A stretch of DNA of 61,210 bases, filler included, from Jimgerdemannia flammicorona (taxonomy: Eukaryota), in NCBI GenBank assembly GCA_003990765.1. It is 3 parts of 3 records of this genome, joined end to end, with 100 filler letters (N's around TTAATTAATTAA, not from the genome) between each part and the next. Parts side by side here need not be neighbours in the genome. Positions count along the whole stretch, not along the records: positions 40,880 to 61,210 come from RBNJ01001707.1; 2 more parts are not named here. One strand, written 5' to 3'. The position numbers and the translations under genes were made by a program. Positions 11,401 through 61,210 of the stretch are shown in pieces (positions within the stretch are counted from its first letter, which is position 1; each line of letters starts with the position of its first letter). The notes under the pieces are model-generated. The model did not search any database. It was not told the origin of the DNA and saw nothing but the letters and a program-made list of their open reading frames with translations.

Positions 11401-11702
11401 ACTCTTGTCTCTAGGGTATTTTATACATTGTGGTTGCTATCTGGTTACTATGTGGTTAACTATAGATTTACTACTTATGGCAATTTGTAAAGGTTTAGCA
11501 CAAGTGTATAGATCTGGCCCAGGTATATAGGTCCTGTACAGATATACCTTATCTGGTAGTCTGGCTATTTATATAGTTTTCTACAGCAATAGTTGCTGTA
11601 TCTGGTTACTATACTATGTATTTATATCATCTTGCTAAGTTACTAATTGTTCACATTATCTGGCTAAGTTTCAATTCAGGTGGTATATTTTAATTTGTTA
11701 CA
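8488..11702 (-). mobile_element. Gypsy family A 5' fragment: LTR + PBS + gag, truncated before protease
   Basis: LTR 10449-11702 (TGTAACA...TGTTACA), then PBS TTTGGAGGCTCAACTAGG and gag LPTFAGYLEEDPREFLDEIEG. Colinear with 46502-48525. Confidence 0.9.
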
Positions 11703-17788: not shown

Positions 17789-18434
17789 GGTTGCAGAGGG
17801 GTGGTGTTCAGCTTAGGGCACGGGGTGCTTCGGAAGAAAGGGGGATTGGGAGAGCACAAGGACACGCTCCGTGAAACGTGAATGGGGAGCAGTGAGAGAA
17901 CGTTCTTGATCGAAAAAGAAGACTTCAAACCTGGGCTACCGAATTTTGGGTTTGTGGCATGCGTGGCGGAACGGTGACTGGCTCAAAACTATGAACGCGT
18001 GCCACTTCTGAACTGTCAACGTGCTCCCGTTATTGAACTAAAGATGGACCATACCCCTTGTGTATTTACAACCTGGAACCAATGCTTATGTTTGATGATT
18101 TCAATATATAGTCTGATATATTTGCAATCAAATTGGCCTACGTCGTTTGTAACCGAACGTGTGTACAATGTTGCGGATTGTTCGTTGGTTGAATTGAATC
18201 GAGTCACGTTCAACCCGTCGCCTGGGTGCCATTGGAAATGCACTTTGCTCACATATATTTATTTTCTTCTTTCAATTTGCAAACTATTCAACTAAAGTTT
18301 TGAAATAATTGTATATGTATCATACACATAAAAGATATGTGCAAATAAAAAAGCTTTATTTTGCTGAATCAATCAACGCCAAAACAGGTCGGCAGAAGTT
18401 GACAGCGAATATTTGTTTGAGACCTAGGACCAAC

Positions 18435-19661: not shown

Positions 19662-20344
19662 GGTTTAAGAGGGGGGATTGTTTCAGCTTAGGGCACGGGG
19701 TGTTCGTAAGAAACGGTGATTTGGAGAGGGCAAGGAAGCGTTTGATTTTAAGAGAGCAGAGAGAGAACGGTCTCGGGGGCCGGAGAAACATTTTACGTCT
19801 GTCAAATTCACGTGACTACCAATAGTATCGCATGAAAAGCGCTAAAGTAGGAATAGCAATAGGTTTAACGAGTCACGGCTGTGTAACCTTTTTTCTCCCC
19901 AAATGTATTATTGTTCTTCTTCTGTCGCTTTGCTGCAATTCTGCAATTAGCGACATCTCGTTTTCGCACCTCCCTGTTTACTGTATTATATCTAGCGGGT
20001 TCGCTTATGCCGAACTGACCATTCGCCACGCAATGTCGATATTCCGACTTGCTGCGATATTCGCCAAAATAAATCAAACATGTATACAACGTAGTTTCGA
20101 GGGGCACGAGAGTTGGATATGCTAAACCTCGTGGCAAAAGTCGTTTAAATTTTTATGAGACTTCCGCCTCTCCCCAAGTATATAACTGGGCTGTCCCTAT
20201 TATCTTAGCAATACAAAAAGTTGACTATATATATATATATATATATATACCGGGTAGAACCTTAATCTGAAGTCAATCACTTTGAGTATTATTGGTAATA
20301 AATTACCATTTGCCCTGCAAGACTGTAAGAATCTCTGCTAAAAA

Positions 20345-40779: not shown

Positions 40780-40879
40780 NNNNNNNNNNNNNNNNNNNNN
40801 NNNNNNNNNNNNNNNNNNNNNNNTTAATTAATTAANNNNNNNNNNNNNNNNNNNNNNNNNNNNNNNNNNNNNNNNNNNN
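40780..40879. other. Artificial contig linker N44-TTAATTAATTAA-N44
   Basis: Identical 100-bp construct to 20345-20444. Confidence 0.97.
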
Positions 40880-40895: not shown

Positions 40896-43800
40896 GATGC
40901 CAGATACTTCAGCAGTATGGACCTCTTTGTGGGATTTCATGAAATCCCCATGGACTCAAAAGACATTCAAAAGACAGTCTTTCTTACTCTAGGAAAACTG
41001 TTTGAATACCTCTGAATGCCCTTTGGACTTTGTAATGCACCCCCATCTTTCAGAAGATGATGAATTCAGTCTATGCTCCCTTGTTCCACTATTGCCTGAT
41101 TGTATACATATACAATTCCAACATCTATTTAGCAAATTTTGAAGAACATCTGCACAACCTAAAGGAATTCTTCAAGCTCACCTGCAAGAACCACTTGAGG
41201 CTGAATGCAAAGAAATGCTACTTTGGGAAACAGAAACTTGAATTTCTTGGATTCATAGTTTTAAAAGAAAGAACCCATACAGACCCAAAGAAAACTAAAA
41301 AAATTAACAATTGGCCAGCACTCAAGACTCTGAAGGAAACATTATCATTCCTGATACTAGTATCTTACTACAGAAGGTTCATCAAGGATTTTGCCTAAAT
41401 TGCTGCTCTAATCTGAATCTTTCTCAAGAAAGAAGTGTCATTCAAGTGGACAGAATCACAAGAAACAGCCTTCAAAGAACTCAAGAACTGCATGACTACA
41501 GTACTAATCCTTGTGCACCCCAATCTACAGAAGTCATTCATCTTGTACACAGATGCTTCTAAAGATAGCCTAAGAGTAGTTCTAGCCCAAGAAAGACCTG
41601 ATCAACAACACCATATAATAGCTTATGCAAGCAGAGCTACCAATCAGCAACAGATAAACTATGGTAGCACCAAACTAGAATACCTTGCAGTCATATGGGC
41701 AATCACATTGTTCAAGTATTATCTCATTGAAAAAAAGTTCACTCTGATCACAGACCATACAGCCCTCAAATGGCTATTCAACTATAAGGAACTTATCAGA
41801 ATTCTAGCCTGCTGGACCCTTATTCTTCAGTATTACAAAATCACCATCATCAATAAAGCAGGGAAAGCCCACAACAATGTTGATGTACTTTCCTGCCAAC
41901 TCCAATAAACCAGAAGAAGGGTGTCCTGAGAAACTACACTTTAAAAGAAGCTCCTCAGACCATCAAGATACAAGAAGATCTCATCTGTAAAGAACATCAA
42001 AAAGCCCACTAAGGACAGATAAGTACAGAAGACAAGATTCAAAAACTGTATCAACACTGGCCCCACCTCAGAACCCAAGTCCAAGACATCATTGACACTT
42101 GTCAGAAGTACTAGAGAAAGAAGAACTATCAAGCCCCTTTACAACTGATTCCCCCACTCACTCACATCTTTCAGAGATAGAGAGTAGATATAATAGAACC
42201 TCTGCCAATAATACCAAAATGAAATAGATATATCCTAGTATTTGTTGAACACTTGACCAAATGGCCTGAAGCATACTCTATGGAGATCGCAGATGTCCTT
42301 TCCATTATTGGACATTTTTATGACCTCGCCCTCTGATATAGACCCCCTGAAGAACTCATCTCTGATAGAGAAACTGAATTTGTGAATAACATAATCTCAA
42401 GCTATACAAAAATTCATGAGATCCACCTGAAACGAACCACCTTTTATCATCCTCAAACCAATGGAATGATTGAAAGAATGAACCAGACCATCAAGAAAGG
42501 ACTTGCCTGAGTCAACTCTACCAATTGGGACCTCTGCTTACCCGAGATCCTATGGGAAATTCGAAATATCCCTGCTGCATCTACCAAACAAAAGCCCTTT
42601 AAAATGATATTTGCCAAAAAGACCAGAACTGCTGACCATAAGAACCTTGAAAAGCTTCTTGAAAAAGAAGATTGGCTGCAAAATGAAGCCTGAATTCAGA
42701 TTATCAAGGCCCAGAAAAGACAAAAGAAGTATTATGACCAGAAACAGAAGGATCAGAAGATCAAGATTGGTGATCAAGTCTTAGTTTAGAGAAGCATAAT
42801 AGAAACAAACTTTGTTGCTAAACTGAAACTGAAATGGGAAGGACCATACCTTGTACACAACATCAGAGGAACCAGCATCTATATAAGAAACATGGATGGA
42901 CATGTCTTGAGAACTCCAGTCTACATCAATTGCCTCAAGATATATCTGTACAAACTATGACTCAGAGGATAGATCAATGCCTTCAGACCCTCATTCTCAG
43001 CTCTTTCCAAGCTCTGCCAATTCCCCTGCCCCAGTTTCGCCAACTTGAAGGAACCCCCATACAATTGATCCAGAAGCATCAAGAGAACCTTGCCATTGCC
43101 CAGAGGTTGCTTCAGATGCCTTCTACAACATTGGACAGCTATTGACAGAATAACCTTACATAAGGAGCCTGGCCAGAATTACTCTCAGAGAAGCAAGAAC
43201 TGCCAAATGAATCTACACTCTGTATAATTGAAATGTTGGAGCCCTGGTGCAGTCTCACTTCTACCTCAATGACATTTATCAGATGAATGAGATCACCTTT
43301 CAGAGTATTCTTCAACAAGTAGACATCTTGTTTCCCAAAGAACAAGAAGAAGATCCAGAGCTAGAATGGAGTGACCCAGATATAGACAATGAAGATGATG
43401 GAACAGACATAGATGTAGAAGATGCCTATGCTTATTGGAATGATGACTAAAGGATAGCCTGGGACAGACTACCCTTTAGTGGAGACTGATGTGATAATCT
43501 ATAAAAATGCAGCATCTAAAAACTTAGCCAGATGATACAAACATTAGCACAACATAGTAACCAGCAACCATTGCTGCAGAAAATGTATAAATAATCCAGA
43601 TAGCTAAAGAAGGGAAAAACCCTGATAGTGGCTGTCACTCTGACAGTAGCTGTCACCCTGACAGTAGCTATCACCCTGATAGTAAATGTCACCCCATAAA
43701 TAGTATTCTATAGTTAGTCAGATAGCAATCAGATAGCAACCACAATATATAAAATACCCCAGAGACAAGAGTGAATAAACCTCAGTTCTGAAATATAAAG

Positions 43801-44761
43801 CAAAAGACAAGTCTGCCTACTATACTTCAAAAGATATATCTGCCAAAAGCCACTGATCTAGGAAGAATTGCAATACTTAAGAGAAATGCCTGCTCTATAG
43901 CCACTACTAGGAGATTGCAAGCTTTGCTCCTTTCTCACTCCAGTCTACTTTCTGTTATAAAGAATGAGTCCATTTTGGTTCACTTACTAGATAAGCCTGA
44001 AGAATCTGAGTTTACTACTCAAGTTTAAGGAAGAACTTTGCAGCCTTTTGAGTAATCTACTGCTTGAGGAATAAGCCACCATTTTCAAGAAGTCTGCTGA
44101 TTTAGAAGAATCCATGCCATCATATTTCCAAAAGAGCCCACCGATTCAGGAAGAATCCACATCATCCAAGTAGTATTCTCAGTTGAAGCTGAATCTGCAT
44201 CATCTGCCATTTCTAAGTTATCTGCCACATTCCCAGTTGAAGCTACCAATTCAGGAAGAATCTGTACTATCTGAGTTATTCATTTATTCCCAGTGAGCCA
44301 AATCAAGTTATCTGCCAGAAACCACATACTTTTGGAAATTGTCATACTATATAGAGATTGTCATGTAGAGATTGCCATCACCTAAGAAGGAAAACTACTA
44401 AATTGACAGACCATCATATATAAGGAAGCTCATGCTATACAAAGATCATCACACTACATAGAGATCATCACACCAAGACTATCACCCAGAAATTGCATAC
44501 TTTTGGAGATTGTCTCACTATACAAAATTGTAGTATTCCCAGTTGACCTAAGAAGGAAATCTGTTCACATATACAAATTGCTGCTACACCCAAGAACCTG
44601 TCCCAGAAAGGAAACCACTTACACAGTATCCAGATCTTGACTATTATACCACTAAATACTAAGAACATTTTGTTGCTTTTAACAAAATAACTGGAGACTC
44701 AAGCCAATCTACATAGTTGCCCAACCTTATAATTGGCCTCTATTGAGCCAGACACATTATA
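40896..44761 (+). mobile_element. Gypsy family A 3' half: RT, RNase H, integrase, extra ORF, PPT, 3' LTR
   Basis: MPFGLCNAPPSFRR; YTDASK...TDHTALKW (RNase H); ISDRETEF...YHPQTNGMIER and GPY (integrase). PPT-like TTTAGTGGAGACTGA. LTR 43490-44761. Confidence 0.95.
42957..43450 (+). pseudogene. Extra ORF3 of Gypsy family A (about 160 aa, acidic C-terminus)
   Basis: ATG overlaps the pol stop (ATGA). MTQRIDQCLQTLIL...EWSDPDIDNEDDGTDIDVEDAYAYWNDD*, with internal stops and a frameshift. Homolog at 59372-59883. Confidence 0.7.
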
Positions 44762-46503
44762 CTATATTCAAATTTAATGATCTTTAGCTTATTAGATTTA
44801 CCTTATATAAAGGAATATAATAAGCTAATAACTGTTAAATTTGGATATATATTTATTAAGTAATTATATTTTAAAAAATAGAGTTTAAATTGAATTTTAA
44901 ATTAAATTAGTCTTTGATTCAATTTGAATTAAATTGAATTGGACCTTTGATTTAATTTATTGAGAGTACTAGATTCATATATTCCAACTCTAGTTATATA
45001 CTAAAAATATCTTTAAAGAAAAAACAATACTATCTCTAGATCTAATTATTATCAACTAAGAACTAGAATATAAAGTCAATTATATTTTAGATCACAAGAA
45101 TTACTAATTCAGACAAGCTACCAAATCTATCTAGTACTACTTTGTAAAATAAAAAGAATATTCTGAGTATAATACTATCTAGAAAAAAGAAGACAACCTT
45201 TTGCTAAATACAGAAGAAGTAGTAACCTAATATAGATATATGATATAATATAAATTCTGATAGAATTTCTAAAAGACAGTTATATTTCTAAATACCTCTG
45301 ATAAAGAGGAGTAGCAGAAATCATACTACTAATATTATAAAATAACTATATATCATAGTAGACATACTAAGCAGTCCTAGGTATACAGTATAAAAGACAG
45401 TCAAATATATCTAAGAATATCTAGGACTGCTTTATCATAACAACTTGTATAATTAGCCAGAGATATTAGAAAGAGTATGTTTATCATACAGACTCTATAT
45501 ACTATACAGACTCTATACACCTATCATAAATAGCATTCTATACTTAGCTATATAGCAATCAGATAGCAACTAACTTATATAAAATACTCTAGAGACAAGA
45601 GTGAATAAACCTCAGTCTAAAATTAAATCTAAAGTAATAGTATTTTCTTTTTACTCTAGTCTACTTTTCAATATAAAGATTGATTGGTATACTTGCTGAA
45701 TAAGCCTGAAGAACTTGAGAAATCTGTCAAGTTCAAGTAAAGAACTTTATTGCTAAAAGAAGAGAATCTGAGTTATTTCTCAGAAAAGTCTACTAATTCA
45801 GGAAGAATCTGCTGCCATTTCCAGAGAGTTTACTATAGAAATCTTGTCACAAAGTCAGTTTATCTGATGCAACTTCACAGTAGAGCTAGTTCATCTAATA
45901 TAATTCCACATAAATGAAGCCAGTCTTTGATATAACTTTACTAAGAATTTGTACTATTTGAGTTTAAGATATTTACTAAAAGAGCTAATTTAGGAAGAAT
46001 CTATATTATTTAAGTTATTGAGTTATCTACCAAACTGAGTTATCTGCTATCCAAGTTATTAAGTTACCCACCAAACTAAGTCATCTACTATTTTTGAAAA
46101 ATCTGCATAAGGAAGTCTACTAAGATCATTATATCAGAAATTATATACTTTTGAAAATAAGATTGTTATATCAGAAATTAAAATAAGATTATTATACAGA
46201 GATCATTATGATACATAGAGATCATTATGCTATACAGAGATTACTATTCAGAAATTACATACTTTTGAAGATTACTATAATACTAAATTGCTATTATATA
46301 TATCCAAGAACTATTCCAATAAGAAAATTAATATACAAATTGACTGTTATATCCAGATTTGACCATTATACTACCAAACACTAAGGACTTTAGAAATTAT
46401 AGAATATTTTGTTACTTTTTAATAAAGTAACTAGAGGCTTAAGCCAAACTACATCAATTTTCAATCTTGTAATCTATCTTTATTGAGCTAGATATATTAC
46501 ATT

Positions 46504-46520
46504 TGGGGGCTCAACTGGAA
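46504..46520 (+). promoter_or_regulatory. Primer-binding site, tRNA-Pro-like
   Basis: TGGGGGCTCAACTGGAA immediately after the LTR, resembling the tRNA-Pro PBS TGGGGGCTCGTCCGGGAT with CpG decay. Second copy at 10431-10446 (minus). Confidence 0.7.
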
Positions 46521-49500
46521 AATTCACACACTGAAGAAGATTTCAAAATCAATATAACTTTTTAACTCATAAGAACTCATGGTCAAACTGGATATATTTG
46601 ATATAATACCAATTTCTGCTACTACAGAAGAACCAATTATTACTAGTATTTAGATAGAAAGAGAAGAAATTACCTCAAGACTTGCCAACTACCTACTATT
46701 AAAAGGATCTCAATAGGAAGTTAGTATAGTACAGAATTCCTAGTTAGAACTAACAGATTTATTACTAGACCAATCAGATCAACCAGATAATATAGACAGT
46801 CTAGCCAGGACCTTCAATAAGCTTATATAAGAACTTGAAGTATACAAATATGATTTCCTGCAGAAGTTCTACTAATTTCACCTATTGAATCTCTACCACC
46901 AGCTATCATAGAACAGAAAGAACTAGGAGTAGCCCATTCAAGAATATCCAGATCTATTGCACCTTGCTCAAGATTTATAATACTATCTTTAGGATATCTA
47001 AGTGTTCTGAACTCTAGTAATAATTCAGAAAGTGAATAAGAATCAGAATCCAAATCAGAATCAGAATCAGGACCAGAATTAGAATCAGAAGATAGTAATA
47101 ATAAAATAGCCACTCTATTGTCAACCTTTGTAGGATACTCAGAAGAAGATCCAAGAGAATTTCTTAATAGAATTGAAGGAATCACAGCTCTAAAGAACCT
47201 CTCATCTGAAAGAAAAGTTGCTATCTATAAGGCCCAACTTAGAGAACTAGTTAAGAGAATTTTCATCTGAGTAAGAAATGATGCAAATTCAGACCTAAGA
47301 GTAGCTATCTATATAACACTAATTTGGCTAGCAGAATATGAAGCCATGACCTACTAATTTATTGAGAAGTATACAGAAAATAAGATCTACTATAAGACTT
47401 AAGAATCTATTATAGAAATGAAGATAAATATTGGAGAATCACTTAGAGCATTCTTTATAAGAATCTAAAAAAGAATATATGTAGCTGGGTTCAATATTAC
47501 CAACTAAGATATTATTGGCCCAATGACCTTTATGAATGAGATTCTTCTAAATATTACTCAGTATATCTGTATCTTAAGTATCAGAAGGTCTGAAGAGCAA
47601 GTAGATACAGCTTAAGGATTTTTTAAATCAGATAAGGAACTATCTGGAGTGACTATGATAAGAAGAATAACAAGAAGGATATCTTGGTCAAAGCTCTACA
47701 AGAACTTCTCTAAGGACAGGAAAGATCTGAAGAAAGAAAGCCAGCTAAAGAATAAAAGAAAAACAGAAATAAAATTCAAAATCTCAGTTCCAAGTTAGAC
47801 TGATTGGTAGAACAGATTAAAAAACTTACTACATATCAAAATCAGAGCTACTTACAAGACAACAGAGGGTATACACTACAAAGAAACCAAGGTTATCTAC
47901 TCAGAGATAATAGGAGCTATTAGTAAGAAGAAAGAAGATACTCTGTCCAGAACAGAGCCCAAGTCCAGTGCTTCTACTGTAGACAATTTGGATACTATAC
48001 CACTGAATGTGATAACAAAGAAGTGACAAGAAACTCAGAACTACTAAATTGAAGAAATGAAATCTAATACAAGAAGACTGAAGCCCATTCTGTCAAAGAC
48101 TTTGAAGAAGAAAGTAATAGTAAAGACTATAGTGACCTGGACTTATACTCAGCCAAAGTTAATACTAATAAGATAGTTTACCCAGCAGAGAAAAGAAAGA
48201 GATATATAGAAAGACCATCCAGGAATATATATCAGCAGAAGAATTCAAGAGAAAGATAAAGATCATGAGAAGGAACAAGTAGAAACACCTCTTCAATCTC
48301 TCTCACCTTTTGTTTCTGAAATGAATAAACTACCTCTAAAGGATGAAGAAATGGAGCAAAGAGAACAAGAGCCTGCTGTCCTGAAGCCTAAGAAGAAGTA
48401 CATCTCAAAGACTATGCCCAGAGATATCTATAATGAAGTCTGGTAAAAGATTCAAGAAGCTAAGATAGAAGTGCTACTCTTGTAGTTCCTCTAACTAATA
48501 TCTGCTGGAGTTCAAAACAAATTGTTGAAAACTACCAGATCCAGCACTGGCCAAGTTCCAATTCTACAATAAGAATCAGTTCTCACTCCTATCTAAGCTG
48601 TAGAAAGATATGTCAGCATCCACTTACATAGAGATATTGGAGGATAAAAGATGAAAATTCTTATAGATATAGGAGTAGCTATCTGTATTATTGTCAAATA
48701 TTTTCTGGACACACTCTAATGGTCCATTGATGGACTATCTAATCTCAGCATTATAGTAGTAGATAGAGCCTAAACTCAACTCCTTGAAGAAGTATGAAAC
48801 ATTACTATCTCTCTGAGACATATTCAGTTTTCTATCCCAAAAGTTATTATTACTGAAGCTGTCACCTATGATATGATTCTTGGTATTAACTTGATAAAGA
48901 AAATGAATATAGTTATTGATATTAGCTAACAAGTACTCAAATTCAATTACCAAGAAAAGAAGTATAGAGTTAAGTTGACTAGCTATGAGCAATTAAAGAA
49001 AAAGAAGAAAGTTACTATCCAGAATAAATATACCAGTAGTGAAGAATCTACTACTGAAGTAGAAGAAGAATCTGAGGATGAAAATGATCTCAGACTCAGT
49101 CTACAAATCAATCTAGTAGATGACAGACCAGAGGACAATGTGTGGATCAGGAATACTATCTCTATCACTATTGGAGCAATTGTAAAATAAATCAAAGAAT
49201 GTCTCATCTGTCTCAAAAGATATAAGTGCCCTGAGCACTTCTCTAAAATCATTAAGAAAAGGAATTTGCCTGATACAACCTACCTCAAGTATAGAAAAAG
49301 AAAGACATATTCCAAAGATACCTATAGCAGAAGCTATAGAAGTATAAGCAATTTGAGGTCAAGAATTATCCAAAGAAGAAGAAACCCCTGAACAAGAAGT
49401 ATCTGAAGAGGAAGAAGTCTCTGAACTTATCCCCTGAGATGACTCTTACTGGATACTATTAGAAGATAATGACCTCTGAAATGGTGAAGAAGGACCCAAT

Positions 49501-49699
49501 ATAATCTCTATTATTTTAAAGTAAGGAATACTCCAAAAAAGAGCCTTTCAGTTAGGAAGATATCTATATCAAATAGTCTTCTACTCTTCTCAAGACTACT
49601 GTTATTGGTGCTATCTACTGGATTAATAAGAAAGACAGAGACCCCAAAGACCAGAACTTCTAACTAGTGCATCGCAACCCAAGCTGATCCATATACATA

Positions 49700-50030
49700 T
49701 TTAACCTGACCTAGAATTATATGTCACCTGTCTTTAACCCAACCTGGAATTATATGTCACCTGTCTTTAACCCAACCTGGAATAATATATCACCCATCTT
49801 TAACCTGACCCAGAATAATATATCACCTATCTTTAACCCAACCCATAATTATATGTCACCTATCTTTAACCTGACCTGGAAACATATGTCACCTGTCTTT
49901 AACCCAACCTGGAATTATATATAATCCATCTTTAACCCAACCCGAGAAATATATGTAACCCAACCCGAGAAATATATATGACCCGACCCAAGAAATATAT
50001 GTGACCCGACCCTAACCTATATTTAACCTG
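49700..50030. repeat. hAT left subterminal 33-bp tandem repeats
   Basis: About 7 copies of TTTAACCCAACCTGGAATTATATGTCACCTGTC, with inverted copies at 55255-55480. Confidence 0.9.
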
Positions 50031-50194
50031 ACACAGACTCATCTTTAATCCACCTTTAAGCTATAAGACACTAAAAAAAATATATTACATATCTAAGATA
50101 TATATTTAGAATAAACAAACAGAAATATAATTAGGAATCAGAAATCAAATTAAAATCAGAAATAAATAGGAAGTAAATCAGGAAAATAAAGAAC

Positions 50195-51771
50195 TTACCA
50201 GTGTGAACAGATCTTACTCTTCATTACTATAAACCAACTAATCCTCCTCCTCTTCATCACTATAAACCAACTGATCCTCCTCCTTCTCATATTCCAAACC
50301 ATCTTCCTCCATATATTCTGAACTACTTTCCTCTATATCCTCCTCCTCCATATCCTCCTCTGTGCTGACCTTCTCTGTGCCAACCTCCATTTTGTCCTTT
50401 ACACCAACCTCTCCATATTCCTCTGTGCCGACCTCCCCACACTAACCTCCCCATATTCCTCCATGCTGACCTCTCTCATGCCAACCTCCTCATGTTCCTC
50501 TGTACTGACCTCCCCCATGCTGACCTCCTCTGTGCTGACCTCCCCCATGCTGACCTCCTCTGTGCTGACCTCCCCCATGCTGACCTCTCCACCAATCTCT
50601 CCACCAGTGCCAACTCCTCTACTGGCACTGACTTCTTCCACCTCTCTATCTCCTCCACCACTACCCTCAACAAAATACACAAGCCTGCCATTTATCAGTC
50701 ATATATAAAGCATTTTGTCATTCTTCACTAGTACTCATTCAAATATGGCCAGCAGTTTTTCATGTTCATCTATAATGACAATTCCATCTGGACAACCTCG
50801 CTTATTCCACACTTTGGTATTCACCTTGAAGCTGGTGTGATATGATGAATGTTCTACAATTTTCGCACAGTTTTCTATCACTCTTATGACTTCTTGCCTC
50901 AGTTGGTCATCATGTACTTTCTTAATGCATTTGTTGGCTGCAGCAAAAGCACACCTAATGTCTGATTTGTAAGACCTTTTCTCTGTGAGATTTGGGGTAT
51001 CCAGGAAATTGGTTTGGTAATGCTTCCAGGTGGTGTTTGGGCAAACTTGATGGCAAAAATGGCAATTGTAGCAAGATTTGCACTCTGGCCCAGACTTAGA
51101 AGCTGGAGGATATGTATATTTTAAATATTATTAGGAAAAAAATTTGGACATTGATTTAAAAAGAAAAAAAAAAAAAAACCAACTTTTTTGAGCTGCATTA
51201 TTGGGATCTAGTGGGAGACCTTGTGCTTGCGGACTGGCAGTGAGCTGGTGGTCAAGCTGGAGATCAGGGAGCTGAGGGTTAGTAAGCTGGGAGTCGGCGA
51301 GCTTGGCAACCTGAGTGTTGGCAAGCTCAGCAGGCTGGGTGTCAGCAAGCTTGGCAGGCTGGGTGTTGGCAAGCTCAGCAGGCTGGGTGTCAGCAAGCTT
51401 GGCAGACTGGGTGTCAGCAAGCTGGGCATCTTTAGGGTGCCAAGCTTTGGGATGGTGAGCTGAAGCATGTCAAGCTTAGGGGGGGCCAAGTAAATACTTA
51501 TTGGCTAGGCAGTCATATCCACGTTTTCTCAACATAGCAGTGAATTAAGTAAGGTGAAGTGAAGGACAAGGTGAAGTGAAGAACAAGGCAAAAAGAATGA
51601 GAGGCAAAAGTAAGCTTTTGATATCTTAAATGTTCAAAAGCTATAACATCTTTCAGAAGCTCTTTCAGAATCTCTCCGAAATCTCTTTCAGAAGCTCTTT
51701 CCAAATCTCTTTGAAATCTCTTTCAAAATCTATTCGAAATCTCTTTTGAAACCCATTTCTAAATTGCATGT
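50195..51771 (-). pseudogene. Second, divergently oriented intron-containing gene inside the hAT
   Basis: Long coding-like frame 51102-50400 (SKSGPECKSCYN...EVIRVIEN...GRLVYFVEG, then an acidic EVS repeat), broken only by TGA codons. CAG acceptor at about 51103, GTAAG donor at about 50199, and an upstream TPSLPSLL-repeat exon at 51208-51489. Confidence 0.55.
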
Positions 51772-51829
51772 TGTTTACAATCTGAGGAATGAGAGTGAGG
51801 GAGATAGAGGAATATGTGAGGGTTGTACA

Positions 51830-52465
51830 AGAGGAGTGGAACACAGTGAGAAAAGCTCTGGATTACAAGCATAAGCATAAGTGTAAGCACAAGTACAAGC
51901 TTTGCTCCACTCAGCTGATAGCTGATATCATATGATATCAGCTTATTATCAGCTTGTCAGACTGAGTAGAGCAAAGCTTATGCTTATGCTTATGCTTGCA
52001 ATCTGGAGCTTTCCTCACTGCATTCCACTCCTCTCTGTGTGATTCAGTGGGTTCTGTATAAGCCCTGATTGAGTGAGGTTTGCAACAACATTTGAGCAAG
52101 ATTTGTAGTGTATTTGAGTGAGATTTGCAGTGAGATTTGTAGTGAGGTTCGAGTGAGATTTGTAAGCAAGATTTGCATAAGCCAGGTTTTATAAGCCTTG
52201 TGCTTGCAAGCTCAGCTGATAGCTGATATCATGTGATATCAGCTTATATACATGTCATATCAGCTTGTGACTGAGCTTGTCCAGGCTTGTAAGTATAAGG
52301 CTTACAAATCTCACTTTAATCTTATATGCAAATCTCACTTGCAAATCTCACTTTAATCTTGCTTGCAAATCTTGCTCGAACCTCACTGCAAATATTGCTC
52401 AAATATACCATAAACCTTGCTCAAATGTCGTTACAAACCTTGCTTAATGCAGAACATACTGAATC
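51830..52465. repeat. Two adjacent long imperfect inverted repeats (51830-52034 and 52041-52465)
   Basis: Arms AGAGGAGTGGA...TCCACTCCTCT and GATTCAGT...ACTGAATC. Each contains the palindrome AGCTGATATCAT(A/G)TGATATCAGCT. Confidence 0.85.
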
Positions 52466-52759
52466 TCCAAAGTATGTTTGCTGTTTGCAGTTGCATAATG
52501 GGTACCAGTTCACCACCTGTACATATTTATTCATCCATCCTCTGTCCACAATTGATCATTGGCTATCGCACACTACCTCACTGCTCTCCCCAGCTTGCTG
52601 ACTCCTGTTTCAGACCCCACAGTTCCTGGCTTTTCCCACTGCTCACTCCCCCAGCTCATTTCCCAGTTCACCACTCCCTAGCTCACCACTTCCTAACCAC
52701 TTTCCAGCCCTTGGCCTCCCACTCAAGCTCCTAGTCTCTATCATTATCAAATATTTGAA

Positions 52760-55130
52760 ATGTCTAAAGATCAAGAAGTATATTTAGAAGAAATCTCAGA
52801 ACTGTTGGATGATATATTAGAGGATATATCAGAGGATATATCAGATATCTCCACTAGTTTGTTATCACCAATGAGTATGAGAATAAAAATAAAAATAAAA
52901 CCTGGTGATAGCTGGGTGTGAAATCATACCACAAAGGTAGTTTTATACATTGTGCTAATGGTTGCATTCATAGAGGTGATTGGTCTCATCAGTCGTAAGG
53001 GTGGGTGGTTGGTTATAAGCAGTTGAGGTTCTAATATAGTCTCATATCTCTCTATTCAAATAGAATTTACAAAGTAAGCTCATCAGTTGCAACTATTGCA
53101 TGACTTGGAGTTATATATCGAAGAATAGCAATATTAACAATCTTAAATGATATCTCTGAAAGCATCACAATGTCATACTCTTACCTCTTTAGTGTGCTAA
53201 GAATTCTTGCTGATCTAAGAAAGATGATATTGTAAGTATAGATAGAATGGAATTCGGGAAGTACTTAGGAGGTTATTAGAAAAATAATTCATCAAATTTT
53301 ATTATTACAAATAGGAACACACTAGCAAGACTTTAAGTGATAAAAATTTCCATTGGTTAATTGCCAACTTCATTGTCACTGGATATCAGCCATTCTCCAC
53401 TATCGAAAATACTGGCTTCAAGTATCTCCTTTACATATTACACCCTGATCTGGCCCTTCCATTGGCTGATATGATTTTACAAGTTATTCGAAAGGAATTT
53501 GAACTATTGTGGACTCAAGTGAAAGTAAGGCTAGCAGGGCTCAAGTCAAAGGTATCACTTACACTTAATTATTGGACATTGGACATTAACATCAAGGCCT
53601 TCCTTGGAATAACAGCTCATTGTATTGACAGTGATTGGAAGATGCATGACATTATCTTAGACTTTGTGAATATTAGCGAAATAATACACATGGGTGCCAA
53701 TCTTGCAAAAAGTCTGAAGCTAGTAATAGATGATTTATTGCCTAGTAATAATCAAATTATTGCTATTGTGTGTGACAATACCAGTAACAATGATACTCTG
53801 TTTGAGAATCTCCATCATCCACTTGCTCATATACATTGTTTCGGGTATATGTTGAATCTCATCATTCATAATGCTCTTGGTTCTCTTAGTGAGCCTATTG
53901 GAAAGCTATAGGAGTTGATAAAGAAGATCAAAAATTCAGTACAATAACAAGCACAACTGGCAAAGGTCTATAAATCCTCTGGAATTTCCATTTTGAAGCC
54001 TCTCTTAGATGTTACAATGAGATGGAGTTCTACACTTGAAATGTTAGCACATGCTCTGGAGATTTGTAAGGTAAGATTTTGAATCTATTTGTATAGATTT
54101 TGGAATATGATTCAGAAGTATTTTGGTACTAAATAAATTGATATTATATCCAAATAGAGCTTGGATATATTGTGTGCTATGGATAAGTAAATGAGTGATA
54201 TATCTGAAGATGCATGGTAACAATTTGAATTGATTTATCGATTTCTCAAGCCTTTTGCCAAAGTGACAACCATGATGTCAGCTTTGAAGTATCCTACAAT
54301 AGCAGCTGTTATCCCACTATTTAATCAGCTATGTGATCACCTCAAAGATGTCATTGATACATATCAAACTGGTGAATATTTTAATCAGGTATATATATGA
54401 TTTTGAAAGTAATTTTATTTGTAAATTTAGAAACTAATTTAGTAAGTAATTGGGAAGTAATATGTATATATTTTTATTTTTTATAAATAATGCTTACTGC
54501 TGCTGAGAATGCATATATGAAACTTCTAAAGTATTACTGCAAGACAACACCATTATACAGCATAGCTTCAGCCTTAGATCCACATATCAACATGCATTAT
54601 TTCTATCATGAGCAATGGAAAAAATCCTTAATTGATGAATGGAAGAATCAGATGGAACATATCTAGGAAAAGGAGTATAAGCCTATTAATGCTGTCATTA
54701 TACCCTCAATATCTTGTGATACTGATGATTTTATCAACTCAATATATGAGAAGAAACAGTACATTGATGTGAATGATGAGCTTAAATAGTGGGTGTTGTT
54801 TTTATGTTTTTTGGTTGGCTTGGTTAATTTTCACTCATATTTCTCTATTTCAGTTATTTGTTAGAGAATCCAGCTAATCCTCATATAGATATATTGGATT
54901 GGTGACAGTGAAATCAGTCAGTATATCCCAATCTTTCATGAATGGCTCACAATTATCTTGCTATTTCAGCAACATCTGTTCTATCTGAACATATTTTTTC
55001 TATTACTGGTGAGCTAGTAACTGAATGTCGAAACAGCTTGTATATAAATACAATTCATGCATGCATGTGTTTGGATTCTTGGTGGTCTTCAGATATTTTT
55101 CACTTTCAATTACTCTGAAAATTATCCAAA
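52760..55130 (+). pseudogene. hAT transposase with BED-type N-terminus, intron-containing
   Basis: SLTLNYWT...FLGITAH, VCDNTSNN, HIHCFGYMLNL, LDVTMRWSST, ASALDP, and YPNLS*MAHNYLAISATSVLSEHIFS (hAT dimerisation domain). Confidence 0.93.
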
Positions 55131-56110
55131 TATTTTCTGAATCATTTTTTCAGGGCAGAGTTCAGAGGGTCGGGTTCAGGGTCAGGTTCAGGGGTTGGGT
55201 TCAGGGTCAGGTTCAGGGGTCAGATTCAGGTTTAAGTTAAGGGTAAATAATGAGTTGGGTGACATATATTTCCAGGTAAGGTTAAAGATGGGTTATGTTT
55301 AATTCTGGCTCGGATTAAAGATGAGTAATATATCTTTCCAGGTCAGGTTAAAGACAGGTGACATACAATTCTAGGTCGGGTTAAAGATGGGTGATGTATA
55401 ATTCTGGGTCGGGTTAAAGATGGGTGATGTATAATTCTGGGTTGGATTAAAGATAGTAATGTCTAATTTCAGGTTGGCTGTTTTATGGGTTGGGTTTCAG
55501 GTTAATCGGGTTGGGTTTGTGGAGTACTACTCCTAACTATAATTATATAGTCAACTATCTTCCAGGAAGTCACTACAAAGTTATAAAGTCAAGCTAAAGA
55601 ATAAGGTCTTTTTACCTAAACAGAAGTATATTCCTTGGCCACCCTTCCTCTAATCTATAATCAGGATAGGTACTAGTTCTCAAGACAATAAGAGATTAAT
55701 AACCAAGAATAGCATTTTTAAGCAATGAGATATTGTAACCATGAAAGACACCCAGACTGCCATAACTGTAGATACTAGAAGATTTACCTTAGCCAGGATG
55801 TTGTAGTCCATATACTAAAGAGAGGAGACAATAGAACTAGAAATCAGGAAGAAGGACTCTTAAGATCTATAACTTGGAAGAAGATATCCTAGCTCTCATC
55901 AGATATATAACTTGCTAAGGATGGATAGAAGATACCACCAACTTCATAGAAGCCCTAGACTCTATAGAAAAAAGAGAAATTAACTATCTCTGAGATCTCT
56001 CTACTGGAGCCAGATGGCTGTACCTCAACCTCATTATCTGAAGGCTTTCTATCAGTAGAGCTTTAGCCCAAGGATAGCCTAAACTTAACAAAGATGTTGT
56101 CCAGTATATC

Positions 56111-56510
56111 TTGCTATATTTCAATACCAAACTCCTGACCAAAGCTCATCAAGAAGATATAGGATATGATCTCTACAGTCTAGAGAATAAATCTATCAAA
56201 CCTGGAAGAATATTGATATTCAGAATGGAACTAGCCATACAGCCACCCAAAGGAACTTACATTCAGCTGACCTCAAGATCTGGACTTATCAGATAAGAAG
56301 TAACTATAGAAAGAGAAACCATAGACTCTGAATATGTAAGTAAAATCAAGATTATCTTATATAATAGTAGTACAGAATAGTACTGAATCCTTAAAGGACA
56401 AAAGACTATACAGACAGTCTTCATAGAAGTTAAGATCTCTCAATTATAAGAAGTTTCTAAACTGATTGAAGGAATAAGACAAACTAAAGAATTTGAAAGC
56501 TCAGACAAGA
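56111..56510 (+). pseudogene. dut: Retroelement dUTPase (family A), between protease and RT
   Basis: AHQEDIGYDLYS, TSRSGL, TIDSEYVSKIKIIL, KGQKTIQ and RQTKEFESSD: decayed dUTPase motifs 1-5. Confidence 0.88.
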
Positions 56511-59371
56511 AGGAAGTATATCTCTTCTAGATCAACTATCTCAAGAAAAATGCCCTCTAGCAAATATATTACCAATCAGTCAAACTGTACAAGAACCTCA
56601 TCCTGAAGTCAGAAGAGCAACCCACCTTCAAAATCTTTATACCACCCAACTCCAGAAACCTTTTCTTTAAACTCAATAAAGATATCTCAAACCTGGATAT
56701 TGAGAGATATATATTTCTTAATAAGATGAATCTGGTATACTTCTGAGCAATCAACCAGAGCTGGGAAAGTATCATCTTGTCATAAGAAACTATTATCAGA
56801 TACCTAGTACTCTTCCTCAACTAAACCCACAGAGAAGTCTATGAGCTAAATCTATTAGGAAATAGCAAAAGATCCTAGAAGAAAAGAAAGGCCTCTCTGC
56901 AACTTAGGAGACAGTAAAGCCTTTCACCAATATTAGAGAAAAATTGACATCTCAGTAATGATAGCAACTAGTAAAACTCCTTCACAAATATCAAGATATC
57001 TTTACAACTGATTATGGTAACCTGTCATACAACCTATCATACTACTACAGTATAAATATAGAAAATATAACACCCATCTGGTAGAAACTCTATAGAATAC
57101 CCCACTATCTAAAGATATTTAAAAAGAAATATATTCAAGAACTCTTAGACAATAGAGTTATCTGATCCTCTACCAGTTCTTAGATTAGCCCCATACTTAT
57201 CATACTAAAGAAAGGAGGATGGAGACTCTGCATAGACTAGAGGAAACTTAATTCAGTCATTGAGAAGAATACCTATTCTTTGTCCAGAATTGATGATCTC
57301 TTGGATCAGTTACAGGATACCAGATACTTCAGCAGTATAGACCTTTTTGCAGGATTCTATAAGATCTCTATGGATCCTAAAGATATTCAGAAGATAGCCC
57401 TCCTTACCTTAGAAAAACTGTTTGAGTACCTCTGAATGTCCTTTGAACTTTACAATACACCCCCCACCTTTCAGAGAATGATGAACTTAGTCTATGGTTC
57501 ACTGATTTACTACTATCTGATTATATAAATAGATGATTTTAATATCTATTCAGAAAATTTCAAAGAATACCTGTACTACTTAGAAGAATTCTTCAAGCTT
57601 ACCTACAAGAATTATCTGAGACTCAATGTCAAGAAATACTACTTTGGAAAACAGAAACTCAAATTTCTTAGATTTATAGTCTCAAAAGAAAAACTCCATA
57701 CAGATCTAAAGAAAACTAAAAAGATCAACAACTGGCCAGCATCCAAGACCCTAAAGAAAACACTATCATTCCTAATATTAGTATTCTATTATAAAAGGTT
57801 TATCAAGAACTTTACCCAAATTTCTACCCCAATCTAAATCCTTTTCAAGAAAGAAGTGTCTTACAAATAGATAGAATTACAAGAGAGAGCCTTTAAGGAA
57901 CTTAAGCATTATATAACTATAGTACCAATCCTTTTTCAGCCTAATTTACAAAAGTCATTTATCTTATATACAGATATTTTCAAAGATGGTCTCAGAGTAG
58001 TTTTAGCCTAAAAAAAATCTGACCAACAATATCATATAATAGCTTATATAAGTCAAGCTACTAATTAGCAGCAGATTAACCACAGTAGCACCAAATTGAA
58101 ATATCTTATAGTCATATGAGCAGTTACTCTGTTCAAATATTACTTTATTAGAAAAGATTCATTCTAATAACTGACTATATAGCTCTCAAATGGCTATTTA
58201 ACTACAAGAAACCCACTGGAATCCTGATCCACTGGATCTTTATCCTTCAGGATTACAAAATCACCATAATCTACAAAGTAGAAAAAGCTCACAACAATAT
58301 TGATATACTTTTCCATCAATCTCAATAAACTAGAAGAAGAGTATACTAAGGAACTATACTCTAAAGAAAGCTCCTCTGACCATCAAAGCACAAAAAGATC
58401 TCATTCAGAAAGAATACCAAAAGGCCCACCAAGAACAGGCAAATGAGAAAGAAAAACTGTACACAACATATCAATATTGGCCCAACCTCAGAATATAAGT
58501 CTGAGATATACTTAGGAAATATAATATCTGTCAAAAGTACTAATGAAAGAAAAATTATCAAGCACTATTATAACCAATTATACTATTAGACAATATCTTC
58601 CAGAGATGAGAGTAGATATAATCAGACTACTACCAGTTATACCAAAAAAGAATAAGTATATCCTAGTATTTGTAAAATATCTAACCAAGTGGTTCAAAGC
58701 TTTTCCAATAGAAATCACAGATGTCTTGACTATTATAGGTCTCCTTTATAGACTTATACTCAGATATAGACCTCTAGAAGAACTCATCTCTAACTAAAGT
58801 ACAGAATTTATCAATAATATAATCATAAGTTATGTCTGAATTTACAAGATCCATCTCAAATAGACTATATCATACTATCCTCAAACTAATAGTATGATAG
58901 AATAAATGAACTAAGCTATTAAAAAAGAACTTGTCTAAGTCAATCCTACTAACTGAGATCTCTACTTATCTGAGATCCTATGGAAAATTTATAATACTCC
59001 CACTATCTCTATCAAATAAAAACTATTCAAAATAATGTTTACAAAGAAGATCTGACCTACTGATCATGAGAATCTCAGAGATCTTCTTAAGAAGGCAGAA
59101 CAGTTATATAATCAAGCCTGAGTTTAGATTATAAAGACCTAAGATAAAAAAAGTACTATAATCAGAAGCAGAAAGATCAGAAGATCAAGATTGGAGATTA
59201 AGTACTAGTTTGGAGAAGTATGATTGAAATAAACTTTATTATCAAACTAGAGCCCAAATGGAAAGAACCTTATCTTATATATAATATCAGAGAAACTAGT
59301 ATCCATTTAAGAAGTATAGATAGACAAACTCTGAGAACACTAGCATACATCAATTGCCTTAAGATATTACT

Positions 59372-59883
59372 ATGAATCAGAGGATTAACTAGTACCTTCA
59401 GACCCCTATTCTTAGCTTATTTAAATCACTTTCAGTTTCTCTACTCCAATTTTGCTAAGCTAATGAAATCTTCTGTTAGTGAATCCAGATTTATCAAGAG
59501 AATCTCATCTTGTCAGATGTCTACTATAAGTCCACTAACTGCAGACCTACTATACTATTAGTGTACAATTACAAAACCTTCTAGCTTCCAAGCAAACTTA
59601 TATTAGAAATATCACAGATCTGATAAGAAGATATGTCATTACTATAAACAGATTATATATATTCTATAAGTGAAACATTCCAGTATTAATGCAGATACAG
59701 TTCTCTCTGAATAATATATAAGAAATGAATTTAGCTACCTATCTAAGTATTATCAATTGTATTAAAATTCTATTCTCAGAAGAAGAGAAGGAATCAGTAA
59801 AATGGAGTAACCCAGATATAAATAAAGATGATAGCTCAGATATTGATGCTGAAGATATATATTTACATTAAAATAATGACTAA
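59372..59883 (+). pseudogene. ORF3 homolog in the second family A copy
   Basis: ATGA overlap with the pol stop. MNQRIN*YLQTL-like start and WSNPDINKDDSSDIDAED end. The middle is divergent from 42957-43450. Confidence 0.65.
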
Positions 59884-60783
59884 AGAATAGTCTGAGAACA
59901 GACCATCCTTTAGTGGGGGCTGATGTGATGAGTAGCAGAAATTGTACTACTAATATTATATATAAAATAACTATATATTATAGTGAATATACTAGGTAGT
60001 CCTGAGTATATAGTATAAAAGACAGTCAAACATATCTAAGGATATCTAGGACTGCTTTGTTATAATAATTTATATAATTAGCCAAAGATACCAGAAAGAA
60101 TATATTTACTATATAGACCCTATATACTATATAGACTCTGTATACTATACAGACTCTGTATACTATATAGACTCTATATATCTGTTATAAATAGCATTCT
60201 ATACTTAGCTATGTAGCAATCAGATAGTAACTAACTTAGAAAGAATCTGTATTATCTAAGTTATTGAATTATCTACCAAACTAAGTTATCTGCCATCTGA
60301 GTTATCAAGTTATCTATCAAACCAAGTCATCTACTATTTTTAAGAAATCTGCATAAGAAAGTTCACCAAGATAATTATGCTCAAAATTATATACTTTTGA
60401 AAATAAGATTGTTATGCTAGAAATTACATACTTTTGAAAATAAGATTGTTATACAGAGATCATCATACTATATAGAGATCATTATGCTATATAGAGATTA
60501 CCACTCAGAAATTATATACTTTTAGAGATCACTACACTATACCAAATTGCTATATACCTAGGAACTATCTCAGTAAGGGAATTGGTATATAAATCAACTA
60601 CTATATTCAGATTTGACCATTATACTACTAAATATCAAGAACTTCAAGAATTATAGAATATTTTATTACTTTTTAACAAAGTAACTGAGGGCTCAAGCCA
60701 AATTACATCAATCTCCAACCTTGTAATTTGCCTTTATTGAGTCAGGCACATTATACTATATAGATAATCTACTATAATATGAG

Positions 60784-61210
60784 TAGTGCTCCGCAAACCC
60801 GACCCGATTAACCCGAAACCCGACCCGTAAAACAGCCAACCCGGAATTAGACGTCACCCGTCTTTAACCCAACCCGGAATTATACGTCACCCGTCTTTAA
60901 CCCGACCCGGAATTATACGTCACCCGTCTTTAACCCGACCCAGAATTGTACGTCACCCGTCTTTAACCCGACCCGGAATAATACGTCACCCGTCTTTAAC
61001 CCGACCCGGAATAATACGTCACCCGTCTTTAACCCGACCTGGAAATGTATGTCACCCGACCCGTTATTTACCCTTAACCCAAACCTGAACCCGACCCCTG
61101 AACCCGACCCTGAACCCGACCCCTGAACCCGACCCTGAACCCGACCCTCTGAACTCTGCTCTGAAAAAATGATTCGGAAAATATTTGGATAATATTCAGA
61201 GTAATTGAAA
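60784..61210 (-). mobile_element. Right end of a CpG-intact copy of the same hAT (truncated by window end)
   Basis: Reverse complement of 55103-55529. TIR TAGTGCTCCGCAAACCC and about 7 copies of 33-bp TTTAACCCGACCCGGAATTATACGTCACCCGTC. Confidence 0.93.

Follow-up and report, generated by a model that had tools for sequence, protein, structure and literature searches.

How would a long terminal repeat (LTR) retrotransposon produce its integrase, and a further protein encoded behind the integrase, when each of these reading frames begins within the stop codon of the frame before it? This question is raised by a 61,210-nucleotide stretch of DNA from Jimgerdemannia flammicorona (GenBank assembly GCA_003990765.1), hereafter the window, along which all positions are counted. 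The window carries two dead, mainly C-to-T-mutated copies (copy A and copy B) of a chromodomain-less, dUTPase-bearing Ty3/Gypsy LTR retrotransposon family. An earlier reading of the sequence, here called the original prediction, had described an extra open reading frame (ORF), ORF3, coupled to the integrase frame by an ATGA stop-start overlap in both copies. The comparisons described below show that ORF3 is, judged by its codon changes, a real gene of this family under purifying selection and without relatives outside it, and that an ATGA overlap at the start of ORF3 and another at the start of the integrase are both ancestral to the family. Serial termination-reinitiation is the best reading of this layout; it is plausible and better supported than the original prediction had it, as a second ATGA was found at the junction of RNase H and integrase and synonymous variation is reduced before ORF3. 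The sequences central to this argument are the following.

41905..41908, plus strand: copy A junction 1, ATAA, where the RNase H frame stops and the integrase starts in the -1 frame
41905..42960, plus strand: remains of the copy A integrase ORF, in which the H2C2 zinc finger, the rve core and the GPY/F end can be recognized; the stretch 41944-42957 is interrupted by 8 in-frame stops
42957..42960, plus strand: copy A junction 2, ATGA (integrase TGA / ORF3 ATG)
42957..43450, plus strand: copy A ORF3 remnant, sub-lineage II, with a tail ending in EWSDPDIDNEDDGTDIDVEDAYAYWNDD and a stop
58325..58328, plus strand: copy B junction 1, ATAA
58325..59375, plus strand: copy B integrase remnant
59372..59375, plus strand: copy B junction 2, ATGA
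59372..59883, plus strand: copy B ORF3 remnant, sub-lineage III, with an APEQT-type insert, 9 stops and one frame change

The stop-start overlaps proposed for ATG 42957 and 59372 are present at both places. The integrase frame of copy A, ending in GPYLVHNIRGTSIYIRNMDGHVLRTPVYINCLKIYLYKL, is closed by TGA at 42958-42960, which is overlapped by ATG at 42957-42959, and that of copy B, ending in INCLKILL, is closed by TGA at 59373-59375, overlapped by ATG at 59372-59374. Five DNA copies were compared, namely copy A, copy B, L001, L002 and L003, of which L001 and L002 are metagenome relatives. Junction 2 reads ATGA in four of them (A, B, L001 and L003), which represent at least three sub-lineages, so that conservation of the overlap in other copies held up when it was checked. 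L002 reads ATAA at this position; the near-identical L002-like proteins P0011, P0008 and P0012 retain Met-Ile, i.e. ATGAT. The overlap survives 3-nt and 12-nt indels immediately upstream of it and is kept behind integrase tails as different as KIYLYKL, KILL, KKYFPTPP, KIYLHKP and KKYFPTLP. The second codon of ORF3 encodes Thr, Ile or Asn and its first base is A throughout, by which the TGA is retained.

A corresponding arrangement was found at the start of the integrase. The frame of reverse transcriptase (RT) and RNase H stops after HNNVDVLS(R/C)xxQ in all five DNA copies, and the integrase follows in the -1 frame. In L001 and L002 this junction 1 is CCCAATGAACC, comprising the TGA stop and the ATG of Met-Asn-Gln-Arg-Lys-Gly. 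Junction 1 is thus ATGA in two of five copies; the other three (L003, A and B) have ATAA, a G-to-A change typical of decay. The integrase ORF of L002 is intact (353 aa) and 99% identical to P0022, an integrase of 354 aa that stands alone and has 19 member sequences; P0022 starts with Met-Ser, encoded with an AGY codon that preserves ATGA. After P0022 the next integrase relatives drop to 45% identity, and no fused pol above 36-37% identity was found (proteins of 619-2000 aa). Between sub-lineages, the proportions of non-synonymous (pN) and synonymous (pS) differences in the integrase are 0.013-0.19 and 0.05-0.63, respectively. Since the integrase was under purifying selection while the sub-lineages diverged, the split layout was functional and not a shared lesion. 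The RNA around junction 1 (96 nt) is predicted to fold with z-scores of -2.95 and -3.16, equalled by 1 and 0 of 200 shuffles, and contains a 10-bp hairpin ending about 9 nt before the AUGA and an 8-bp hairpin from position +14.

Two further candidate regularities at integrase starts were not relied on. A common M-x-Q-R start of integrase and ORF3 (ATGAACCAAAGGA versus ATGACTCAGAGGA) was given up as a signal because these three codons are absent in sub-lineage I. Among the integrase-like proteins P0023-P0141 (194-618 aa), 96 of 120 start at the equivalent Met (42 with MN, 31 with MD and 23 with ME). This hints that stand-alone integrases may be common in a wider clade; however, a fused pol of Rhizophagus clarus extends across this region, so that the starts may be gene-calling artefacts.

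The original prediction gave ORF3 as an ORF of about 160 aa in both copies. It is open in neither, and this length is a reconstruction. In copy A the first 54 codons are free of stops, followed by a 13-nt deletion at 43116/43117 and then three stops, and the longest ATG ORF at the site (103 aa) lies in a different register. Copy B has four plus five stops and a frame change near 59509-59515. The deletion in copy A fits one soil-metagenome contig (run X1, depth 13.2 of 78.9), which has 13 extra nt exactly at 43117. The frame does extend nearly to the polypurine tract, as had been described, ending about 40 nt before the 3' LTR with stops at 43448-43450 (A) and 59881-59883 (B). The described conservation of its N-terminus and of its acidic, Trp-containing C-terminus around a diverged middle was also found: the ends align between A and B and the middle does not at the DNA level, the blastn alignment of the two copies covering only 40896-43043 and 43362-43495. 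The middle still aligns as protein. Copy A ORF3 is of the P0016 type and copy B ORF3 of the P0015 type, and the diverged middle is attributed to the two sub-lineages, a 5-codon indel and decay.

Relatives of ORF3 were sought with the read-through N-terminal part, which gave seven proteins among eight candidates, and a cluster look-up added others. Intact ORF3 proteins occur in soil and root metagenomes as P0011 (164 aa, three contigs), P0015 (170 aa) and P0010 (172 aa), while P0008 and P0012 (183 aa) begin 19 residues further upstream in the same frame. The openness of ORF3 is thereby borne out in natural relatives (164, 170, 172 and 183 aa). At a threshold of 90% identity the intact forms group into three clusters, and those of different sub-lineages share 59-61% of their residues; L001 ORF3 is a fourth type. 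In a profile search of 1.84 billion representatives, five ORF3 proteins of at most 157 aa were returned, all of them members of the family, and ORF3 is therefore regarded as an orphan. No pol-ORF3 fusion was found among the same representatives.

Counts on a codon map gave pN 0.11-0.35 and pS 0.58-0.81 for ORF3, the latter near saturation. As protein-guided alignment might bias such values, nucleotide alignments were also counted in all three frames: pN/pS was 0.17-0.42 in the ORF3 frame and 0.64-2.46 in the other two in six of seven pairs, the seventh pair (A-B) being confounded by frameshifts in both copies. A ratio far below 1 is thus confined to the ORF3 frame, and the claim of a conserved gene withstood this check as well. 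Each antisense frame contains at least two stops, and at least five over the full-length L001 copy. By tblastn, E-values of 1e-60 to 1e-73 were reached where the ORF3 DNA is merely 58-71% identical.

Codon differences between L001 and L003 point to exchange of the 3' end of the element. The two are almost identical in the integrase (pS 0.049) and far apart in ORF3 (pS 0.58). In a sliding comparison their identity is 98-100% in most of the integrase, about 92% near its end, 70-80% from about 35 nt inside ORF3 and about 50% past about 185 nt. It appears from this that the 3' module has been swapped between sub-lineages and that the middle of ORF3 is a recombining mosaic. L003 ORF3 is itself mosaic: it (1216-1569) has an N-terminus of the L001 type (L001 1790-2290) and a middle of the P0015 type, a combination that results from recombination inside ORF3.

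Synonymous codon differences are reduced in front of ORF3. In the last 60 integrase codons they amount to 10-17%, compared with 29-39% elsewhere (Fisher's exact p = 0.0066 for L001-L002, 0.0048 for A-L001 and 0.0042 for L003-L002, the last not independent of L001-L002). For L001-L002, pS is 0.10-0.16 in the last ~60 integrase codons and 0.28-0.63 elsewhere, with the minimum at integrase codons 308-337, 45-135 nt upstream of the ATGA. This island could be a restart-promoting element; its counterpart in copy A is as follows.

42778..42956, plus strand: copy A counterpart of the island of reduced synonymous change, last ~60 integrase codons; candidate cis element for ORF3

Upstream of the integrase, the frames of the element also suggest a retrovirus-like -1 frameshift within pol. 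The features concerned are listed below.

46519..49640, plus strand: heavily mutated region of gag (CCHC motif CFYCRQFGYYTTEC) and protease
56129..56503, plus strand: copy B dUTPase domain (PF00692), between protease and RT
56857..56863, plus strand: copy B AGGAAAT, the mutated counterpart of the L002 heptamer G_GGA_AAC
40896..41908, plus strand: copy A RT-RNase H remnant, whose frame ends with TAA at 41906-41908; identified by blastn to L001-L003

Pfam searches were run on three-frame read-throughs with stops written as X. The gag CCHC motif is visible in the read-through translation, and the mutated gag region gave no Pfam match. Gag and protease (PR) lie in one frame in a partial copy on the reverse strand (8347-8841). 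The dUTPase proposed for the element was recovered with PF00692 at E 2.5e-15 in copy B and 4.6e-26 in L002. In L002 and copy B alike, the RT frame is -1 to that of the dUTPase, and in L002 an in-phase G_GGA_AAC heptamer is located at 1322-1328, inside the overlap of dUTPase and RT.

From these observations a working layout can be drawn up in the order gag-PR-dUTPase, -1 slip, RT-RNase H, ATGA, integrase, ATGA, ORF3. The RT-RNase H frame would be reached at the in-phase G_GGA_AAC heptamer. The integrase would be made as a separate product of 353-354 aa, its AUG overlapping the RT-RNase H stop, and ORF3 (164-172 aa) likewise from an AUG that overlaps the integrase stop, both as AUGA. The full-length RNA would be translated as a relay, in which ribosomes terminating at each UGA restart at the overlapping AUG, and output would accordingly fall from RT-RNase H over integrase to ORF3. 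Taken as a whole, two dead copies of a polycistronic family with a real ORF3 gene, translated by such a relay and with an adaptor role for the ORF3 protein, are our best explanation, and we put its chances at about even. Its most specific version combines the -1 frameshift and the two AUGA restarts with an ORF3 protein that acts as a transactivator, the variable core of which co-evolves with the U3 region while its tail recruits the host transcription or chromatin machinery. This version is proposed tentatively and is probably not correct in all its parts.

A number of results weigh against relay translation. At junction 2, no significant RNA structure was predicted within ±48 nt (z +0.79 to -0.61) or in the 150 nt upstream (z -0.49 to -0.82), and no downstream hairpin like that of junction 1 was found; the folding tool used does not predict pseudoknots. 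Alifold on five sequences yielded few informative changes at both junctions, and its apparently compensatory pairs were discarded as evidence, being G-to-A together with C-to-U and expected from decay anyway. The reduction in synonymous change is not significant in four of seven pairs (A-L002 p = 0.33, three copy B pairs 0.58-1), its 60-codon window was picked post hoc, and before junction 1 no comparable drop was detected. Other possible causes of the island are local recombination, a second reading frame overlapping it, and a signal for splicing or for a promoter. The database proteins that cover the ORF3 start have Met in 14 of 15 cases, followed by Thr, Ile or Asn (P0006 has Ile in place of Met, and P0018 is the product of L001 itself), a weak count as gene callers partly force Met. 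None of the five DNA copies has a wholly intact ORF3, the G_GGA_AAC heptamer rests on a single undecayed copy and the fold downstream of it is not significant (z 0.16). Finally, two restarts after a frameshift would yield very little ORF3 protein, and the metagenome contigs are silent on translation.

Three other accounts of ORF3 were considered beside relay translation. ORF3 may be real and have an mRNA to itself, which would be either spliced and subgenomic, like those of retroviral env and accessory genes, or started from an internal promoter in the 3' end of the integrase; ATGA would then reflect tight packing. Splicing within a coding region has a precedent in the plant element Ogre, where an intron inside the coding region is spliced out. 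Such an mRNA would agree with the lack of significant RNA structure at junction 2, with a purine at -3 of the ORF3 AUG in all five copies, which suits ordinary scanning initiation, and with the island in the last 60 integrase codons, which might just as well represent a promoter or a splice acceptor with its branch region. The very low yield expected from two serial restarts points in the same direction (accessible text of PMC10275272). However, the integrase, which is an essential enzyme, is itself connected to RT-RNase H through ATGA, so that two extra mRNAs would be required. Moreover, the A after the ATG is kept while the second codon otherwise varies (Thr, Ile and Asn in ORF3; Asn and Ser in the integrase), which points to selection on the overlap itself, and the indels directly upstream of the junction are all multiples of three. 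We consider a separate mRNA rather unlikely, and still the strongest of the three accounts. ORF3 could instead start about 41 codons upstream, at an AUG inside the KWEGPY codons (MGRTIPCTQ...), by internal initiation or as an integrase-ORF3 fusion made by a -1 frameshift. In copy A and L002 its frame does continue upstream without a stop for about 45-50 codons, gene callers report proteins lengthened by 41 (P0019), 22 (P0006) or 19 residues (P0008 and P0012), and a dual-coding overlap would account for the low synonymous change at integrase codons 293-352. Against this, L001, L003 and copy B each have a stop in the upstream frame, which in L001 results from an ordinary Gly-to-Arg change of the integrase. 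No in-phase X_XXY_YYZ heptamer was seen by eye before either junction, an integrase-ORF3 fusion protein was found neither among the 1.84 billion representatives nor in a search of longer proteins, and strong protein conservation begins exactly at the Met of the ATGA. An upstream start is accordingly judged improbable.

The last account denies ORF3 a function and regards it as a decayed integrase tail or 3' untranslated region, the ends of which are kept for cis functions such as the polypurine tract and reverse-transcription signals, with ATGA a coincidence shared by descent. The stops in ORF3 of both window copies, L001 and L003 would be explained in this way, as would a conserved 3' block that adjoins the LTR and a protein that has neither outside relatives nor a confident fold. 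It is largely refuted already by five distinct full-length open forms from three sub-lineages, by divergence that favours third codon positions in the ORF3 frame and in no other, by the tblastn matches at low DNA identity and by a middle that aligns as protein between the window copies though blastn fails, and we regard it as very improbable. Serial termination-reinitiation is retained as the preferred reading. Of the original prediction, the conserved accessory gene in the env position that is not a classical env thus stood; its expression by coupled reinitiation stays an inference.

The product of ORF3 was characterized from its intact forms. In agreement with the predicted lack of an obvious transmembrane segment, the maximal Kyte-Doolittle mean over 19 residues is 0.94-1.46 in three intact relatives. 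ORF3 has neither signal peptide nor transmembrane segment, and the element is by this measure not of the env-bearing (errantivirus or Athila) type. The protein has an overall isoelectric point of 4.4-4.5 and a basic core of 9.2-9.9, and its last 45 residues contain 17-19 Asp/Glu and zero Lys/Arg, with the conserved motifs EWSDP and AY.YW(N/D)DD. The best of five AlphaFold2 models from a 17-row alignment is all helical with a mean confidence (pLDDT) of 61.1, and 72-79 at residues 30-135; a 9-row alignment gave 47. These properties suggest an adaptor, whose variable basic helical core may bind nucleic acid or the element's own nucleoprotein or particle and whose conserved acidic Trp/Tyr tail may recruit a host factor. 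The tail may resemble acidic activation domains and Arp2/3-binding acidic-Trp motifs. Our preferred guess, a tentative one, is an LTR-directed, transactivator-like role on the neighbouring and co-exchanged U3. An antagonist of host defence seems unlikely, and the same degree of doubt attaches to an integration or chromatin cofactor. All such functional guesses are drawn from composition, and the remaining evidence does not favour them: the other four AlphaFold2 models are poor (pLDDT 41-48), the best Pfam match is at E 0.2-0.36 and below cut-offs, NCBIfam returned 0 families, and the best match of a profile search of the PDB is at E 0.5. The ESM Atlas gave unnamed clusters at 0.90-0.91 with a template modelling score of at most 0.40, Foldseek against the PDB reached E 0.27 at best, and in VIA wide the best Z was 6.4, under the stated noise level for helical bundles; no fold was assigned.

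The layout of the element copies in the window was resolved by self-comparison and repeat finding. The remaining features of the family are listed below.

43487..44761, plus strand: copy A 3' LTR (TG...ATTATA)
45299..46501, plus strand: 5' LTR before the copy B interior; membership in the same insertion as copy B uncertain
46504..46518, plus strand: sequence like a primer binding site (PBS), TGGGGGCTCAACTGG, 2 nt past the 5' LTR; tRNA-Pro is the putative primer of the original prediction
59921..60755, plus strand: copy B 3' LTR

Copy A is partial, running from RT through the 3' LTR (40896-44761), and begins directly after assembly gaps (N runs at 40780-40823 and 40836-40879). Copy B is split into two parts by a DNA transposon-like insert at 49643-55535, with LTR, PBS and gag-PR at 45299-49640 and the pol-ORF3-LTR part at about 55540-60755. 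Whether the LTR at 45299 belongs to the copy B insertion is uncertain, as no matching target duplication was seen. Assignment to Ty3/Gypsy LTR elements follows from the direct repeats (45299-46501 and 59921-60755, and 43487-44761) and from the order PR - RT - RNase H - integrase on one strand. In L002, Pfam matches were obtained for RVT_1 (E 5.1e-32), RT_RNaseH (E 9.1e-38), rve (E 2.1e-10) and Integrase_H2C2 (E 3.9e-10), the latter two families also being matched in copy A. No match to the chromodomain PF00385 was found on the integrase ORF, ORF3 or three-frame read-throughs, which separates the family from chromoviruses, and the integrase ORF stops 30-35 residues past the GPY motif. The LTRs of A and B are largely unalignable with each other by blastn.

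Both copies are decayed, with stops throughout. Relative to the less mutated L002, copy B shows 602 C-to-T/G-to-A changes and 142 in the reverse direction, with peaks at CpG (0.58) and CpA (0.46), and copy A shows 207 and 65, respectively. For annotation, both are ordinary dead repeats. The host of the family is probably a soil or root fungus, a view favoured, and not proven, by decay resembling repeat-induced point mutation or deamination, by the nearest named integrase relatives, which are Glomeromycota proteins (36-37% identical), and by soil and root metagenome runs. Four sequencing runs matched the element with a small share (0.05), two of them soil metagenomes and one a root metagenome, and no RNA run was among these matches. 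Reads aligned to the window gave short contigs of relatives and no joints. A metagenome scan returned at least 590 pattern matches, and three among the matches listed encode relatives. A scan of viral contigs with the integrase gave no match.

Further observations were made on the ends of the element copies. The hexamer CTATAT follows both 3' LTRs (44762-44767 and 60756-60761), the outer flanks being different; this could reflect a target preference or an LTR end 6 nt further out. ACCTC precedes the LTR at 45299, and no matching target duplication for an element of 45299-60755 was seen. A third partial copy of the family is present on the minus strand at 8347-11480, comprising LTR, PBS and the start of gag-PR; the end of gag and the start of PR are less mutated there than in copy B.

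The surrounding region is repeat-rich, its GC content ranging from 19% to 55%. The insert nested in copy B has a third terminal copy at 60778-61210; its ends form an inverted pair (55104-55535 versus 61210-60778) with 87% identity and contain a subterminal 33-bp repeat in tandem arrays, and an internal ORF at 53315-53911 gave weak matches to DUF659 (E 7e-4) and a TNP-like RNase H (E 6.5e-3). The segment 35164-40780 is GC-rich (53-55%), has a GC skew of up to 0.57, ends at an assembly gap and contains a reverse transcriptase of non-LTR type (RVT_1, E 2.3e-9 at 38437-39237). A repeated family at 3665-8250 and 17213-19740 (about 72-80% identical) has Ser/Pro/Thr-rich ORFs with a C-x2-C-x6-C...C-x2-C-x6-C pattern. 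The Zn2Cys6-like pattern seen by eye in the ORF at 18438-19664 had no Pfam match and was dropped as support for a fungal host.

Retroviruses and LTR retrotransposons generally set their Gag:Pol ratio by frameshifting or readthrough and cleave RT and integrase from one polyprotein. In the betaretrovirus type, with its layout of gag, pro (with dUTPase) and pol joined by -1 frameshifts, dUTPase and protease are encoded in one frame, and a heptanucleotide slippery site gives access to RT in the -1 frame, as appears to be the case here. The present family differs in that gag, too, appears to lie in the frame of PR and dUTPase and the later junctions are stop-start overlaps. A dUTPase between PR and RT has been reported for fungal LTR elements (accessible parts of PMC2864245 and PMC6431247), and Tmt1 of Tuber, PosPlaTy3 of Postia and elements of Phanerochaete likewise combine gag, PR, RT, RNase H, integrase and dUTPase. 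In contrast to Tmt1, which is placed among chromodomain-bearing elements in the text available of PMC12581995, the GPY/F module forms the end of the integrase described here, and a chromodomain was not detected. Split frames for RT-RNase H, integrase and ORF3 with ATGA overlaps are not mentioned in the accessible descriptions of these fungal dUTPase elements.

Extra ORFs between integrase and 3' LTR are known from LTR elements including fungal ones (PMC2864245 and PMC5408684, accessible parts), and the 'add. ORF of unknown function' that a figure legend of Novikova 2010 gives for listed elements may overlap with ORF3. The env-like ORFs of Athila/Tat, ORF3 of the bdelloid elements Juno and Vesta and env of errantiviruses occupy the same position. 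Compared with them, the present ORF3 is small (164-172 aa), lacks signal peptide and transmembrane segment and has no similarity to the families tested. If the proposed role is true, it would be a new accessory protein of retroelements, a transactivator comparable to those of complex retroviruses. Orphan accessory genes of this kind could mediate transposon-host conflict or promoter feedback, and accessory genes of any sort have rarely been described in fungal transposons.

The closest counterparts of the proposed relay are found among RNA viruses. The available text of PMC10275272 and PMC5902531 describes restart at AUGA or UAAUG in caliciviruses as dependent on 40-87 nt upstream, and restart in the fungal viruses CHV1 and HvV190S as dependent on upstream coding sequence; calicivirus efficiency is given as 3-20% per event (PMC10275272, same limits). 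Overlapping stop and restart codons, a feature of systems with a termination upstream ribosomal binding site (TURBS), are present at both junctions here. As in calicivirus and influenza B TURBS, HvV190S and CHV1, a long upstream ORF is followed by a downstream one in a different frame, and the stop of the first has nucleotides in common with the start of the second. TURBS systems need sequence within about 40-90 nt upstream, including a motif complementary to 18S rRNA; candidate counterparts in the present family are the synonymous island before ORF3 and a hairpin before the integrase. In victoriviruses a pseudoknot is predicted near the AUGA; here, a 10-bp hairpin lies about 9 nt before junction 1 and no significant fold was found at junction 2. 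Unlike the TURBS viruses, the family is a DNA-integrated retroelement with two junctions in series and is known from sequence alone. Among retroelements, the non-LTR element SART1 couples ORF1 and ORF2 by UAAUG and needs a downstream hairpin (PMC10275272 and PMC5902531, accessible parts), which may be compared with the 8-bp hairpin from +14 at junction 1; SART1 differs in being non-LTR and in using UAAUG, the present element being an LTR element with ATGA. In the available text of a 2018 review (PMC5902531), LTR elements and retroviruses are said to use frameshifting for Gag-Pol, and termination-reinitiation is named only for non-LTR elements. An LTR element with ATGA coupling or with an integrase made by restart was not found in the literature, the coverage of which was incomplete for subscription papers. 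If the proposed relay is true, the family would be the first LTR element with termination-reinitiation and the first to make its integrase in that way, and a separate integrase and an extra cistron behind AUGA overlaps would be a new expression strategy for this class. It would also provide two short restart signals of natural origin, which presumably work in fungi, for use in reporters, and would bring LTR elements closer to caulimoviruses, caliciviruses and fungal RNA viruses with their polycistronic logic.

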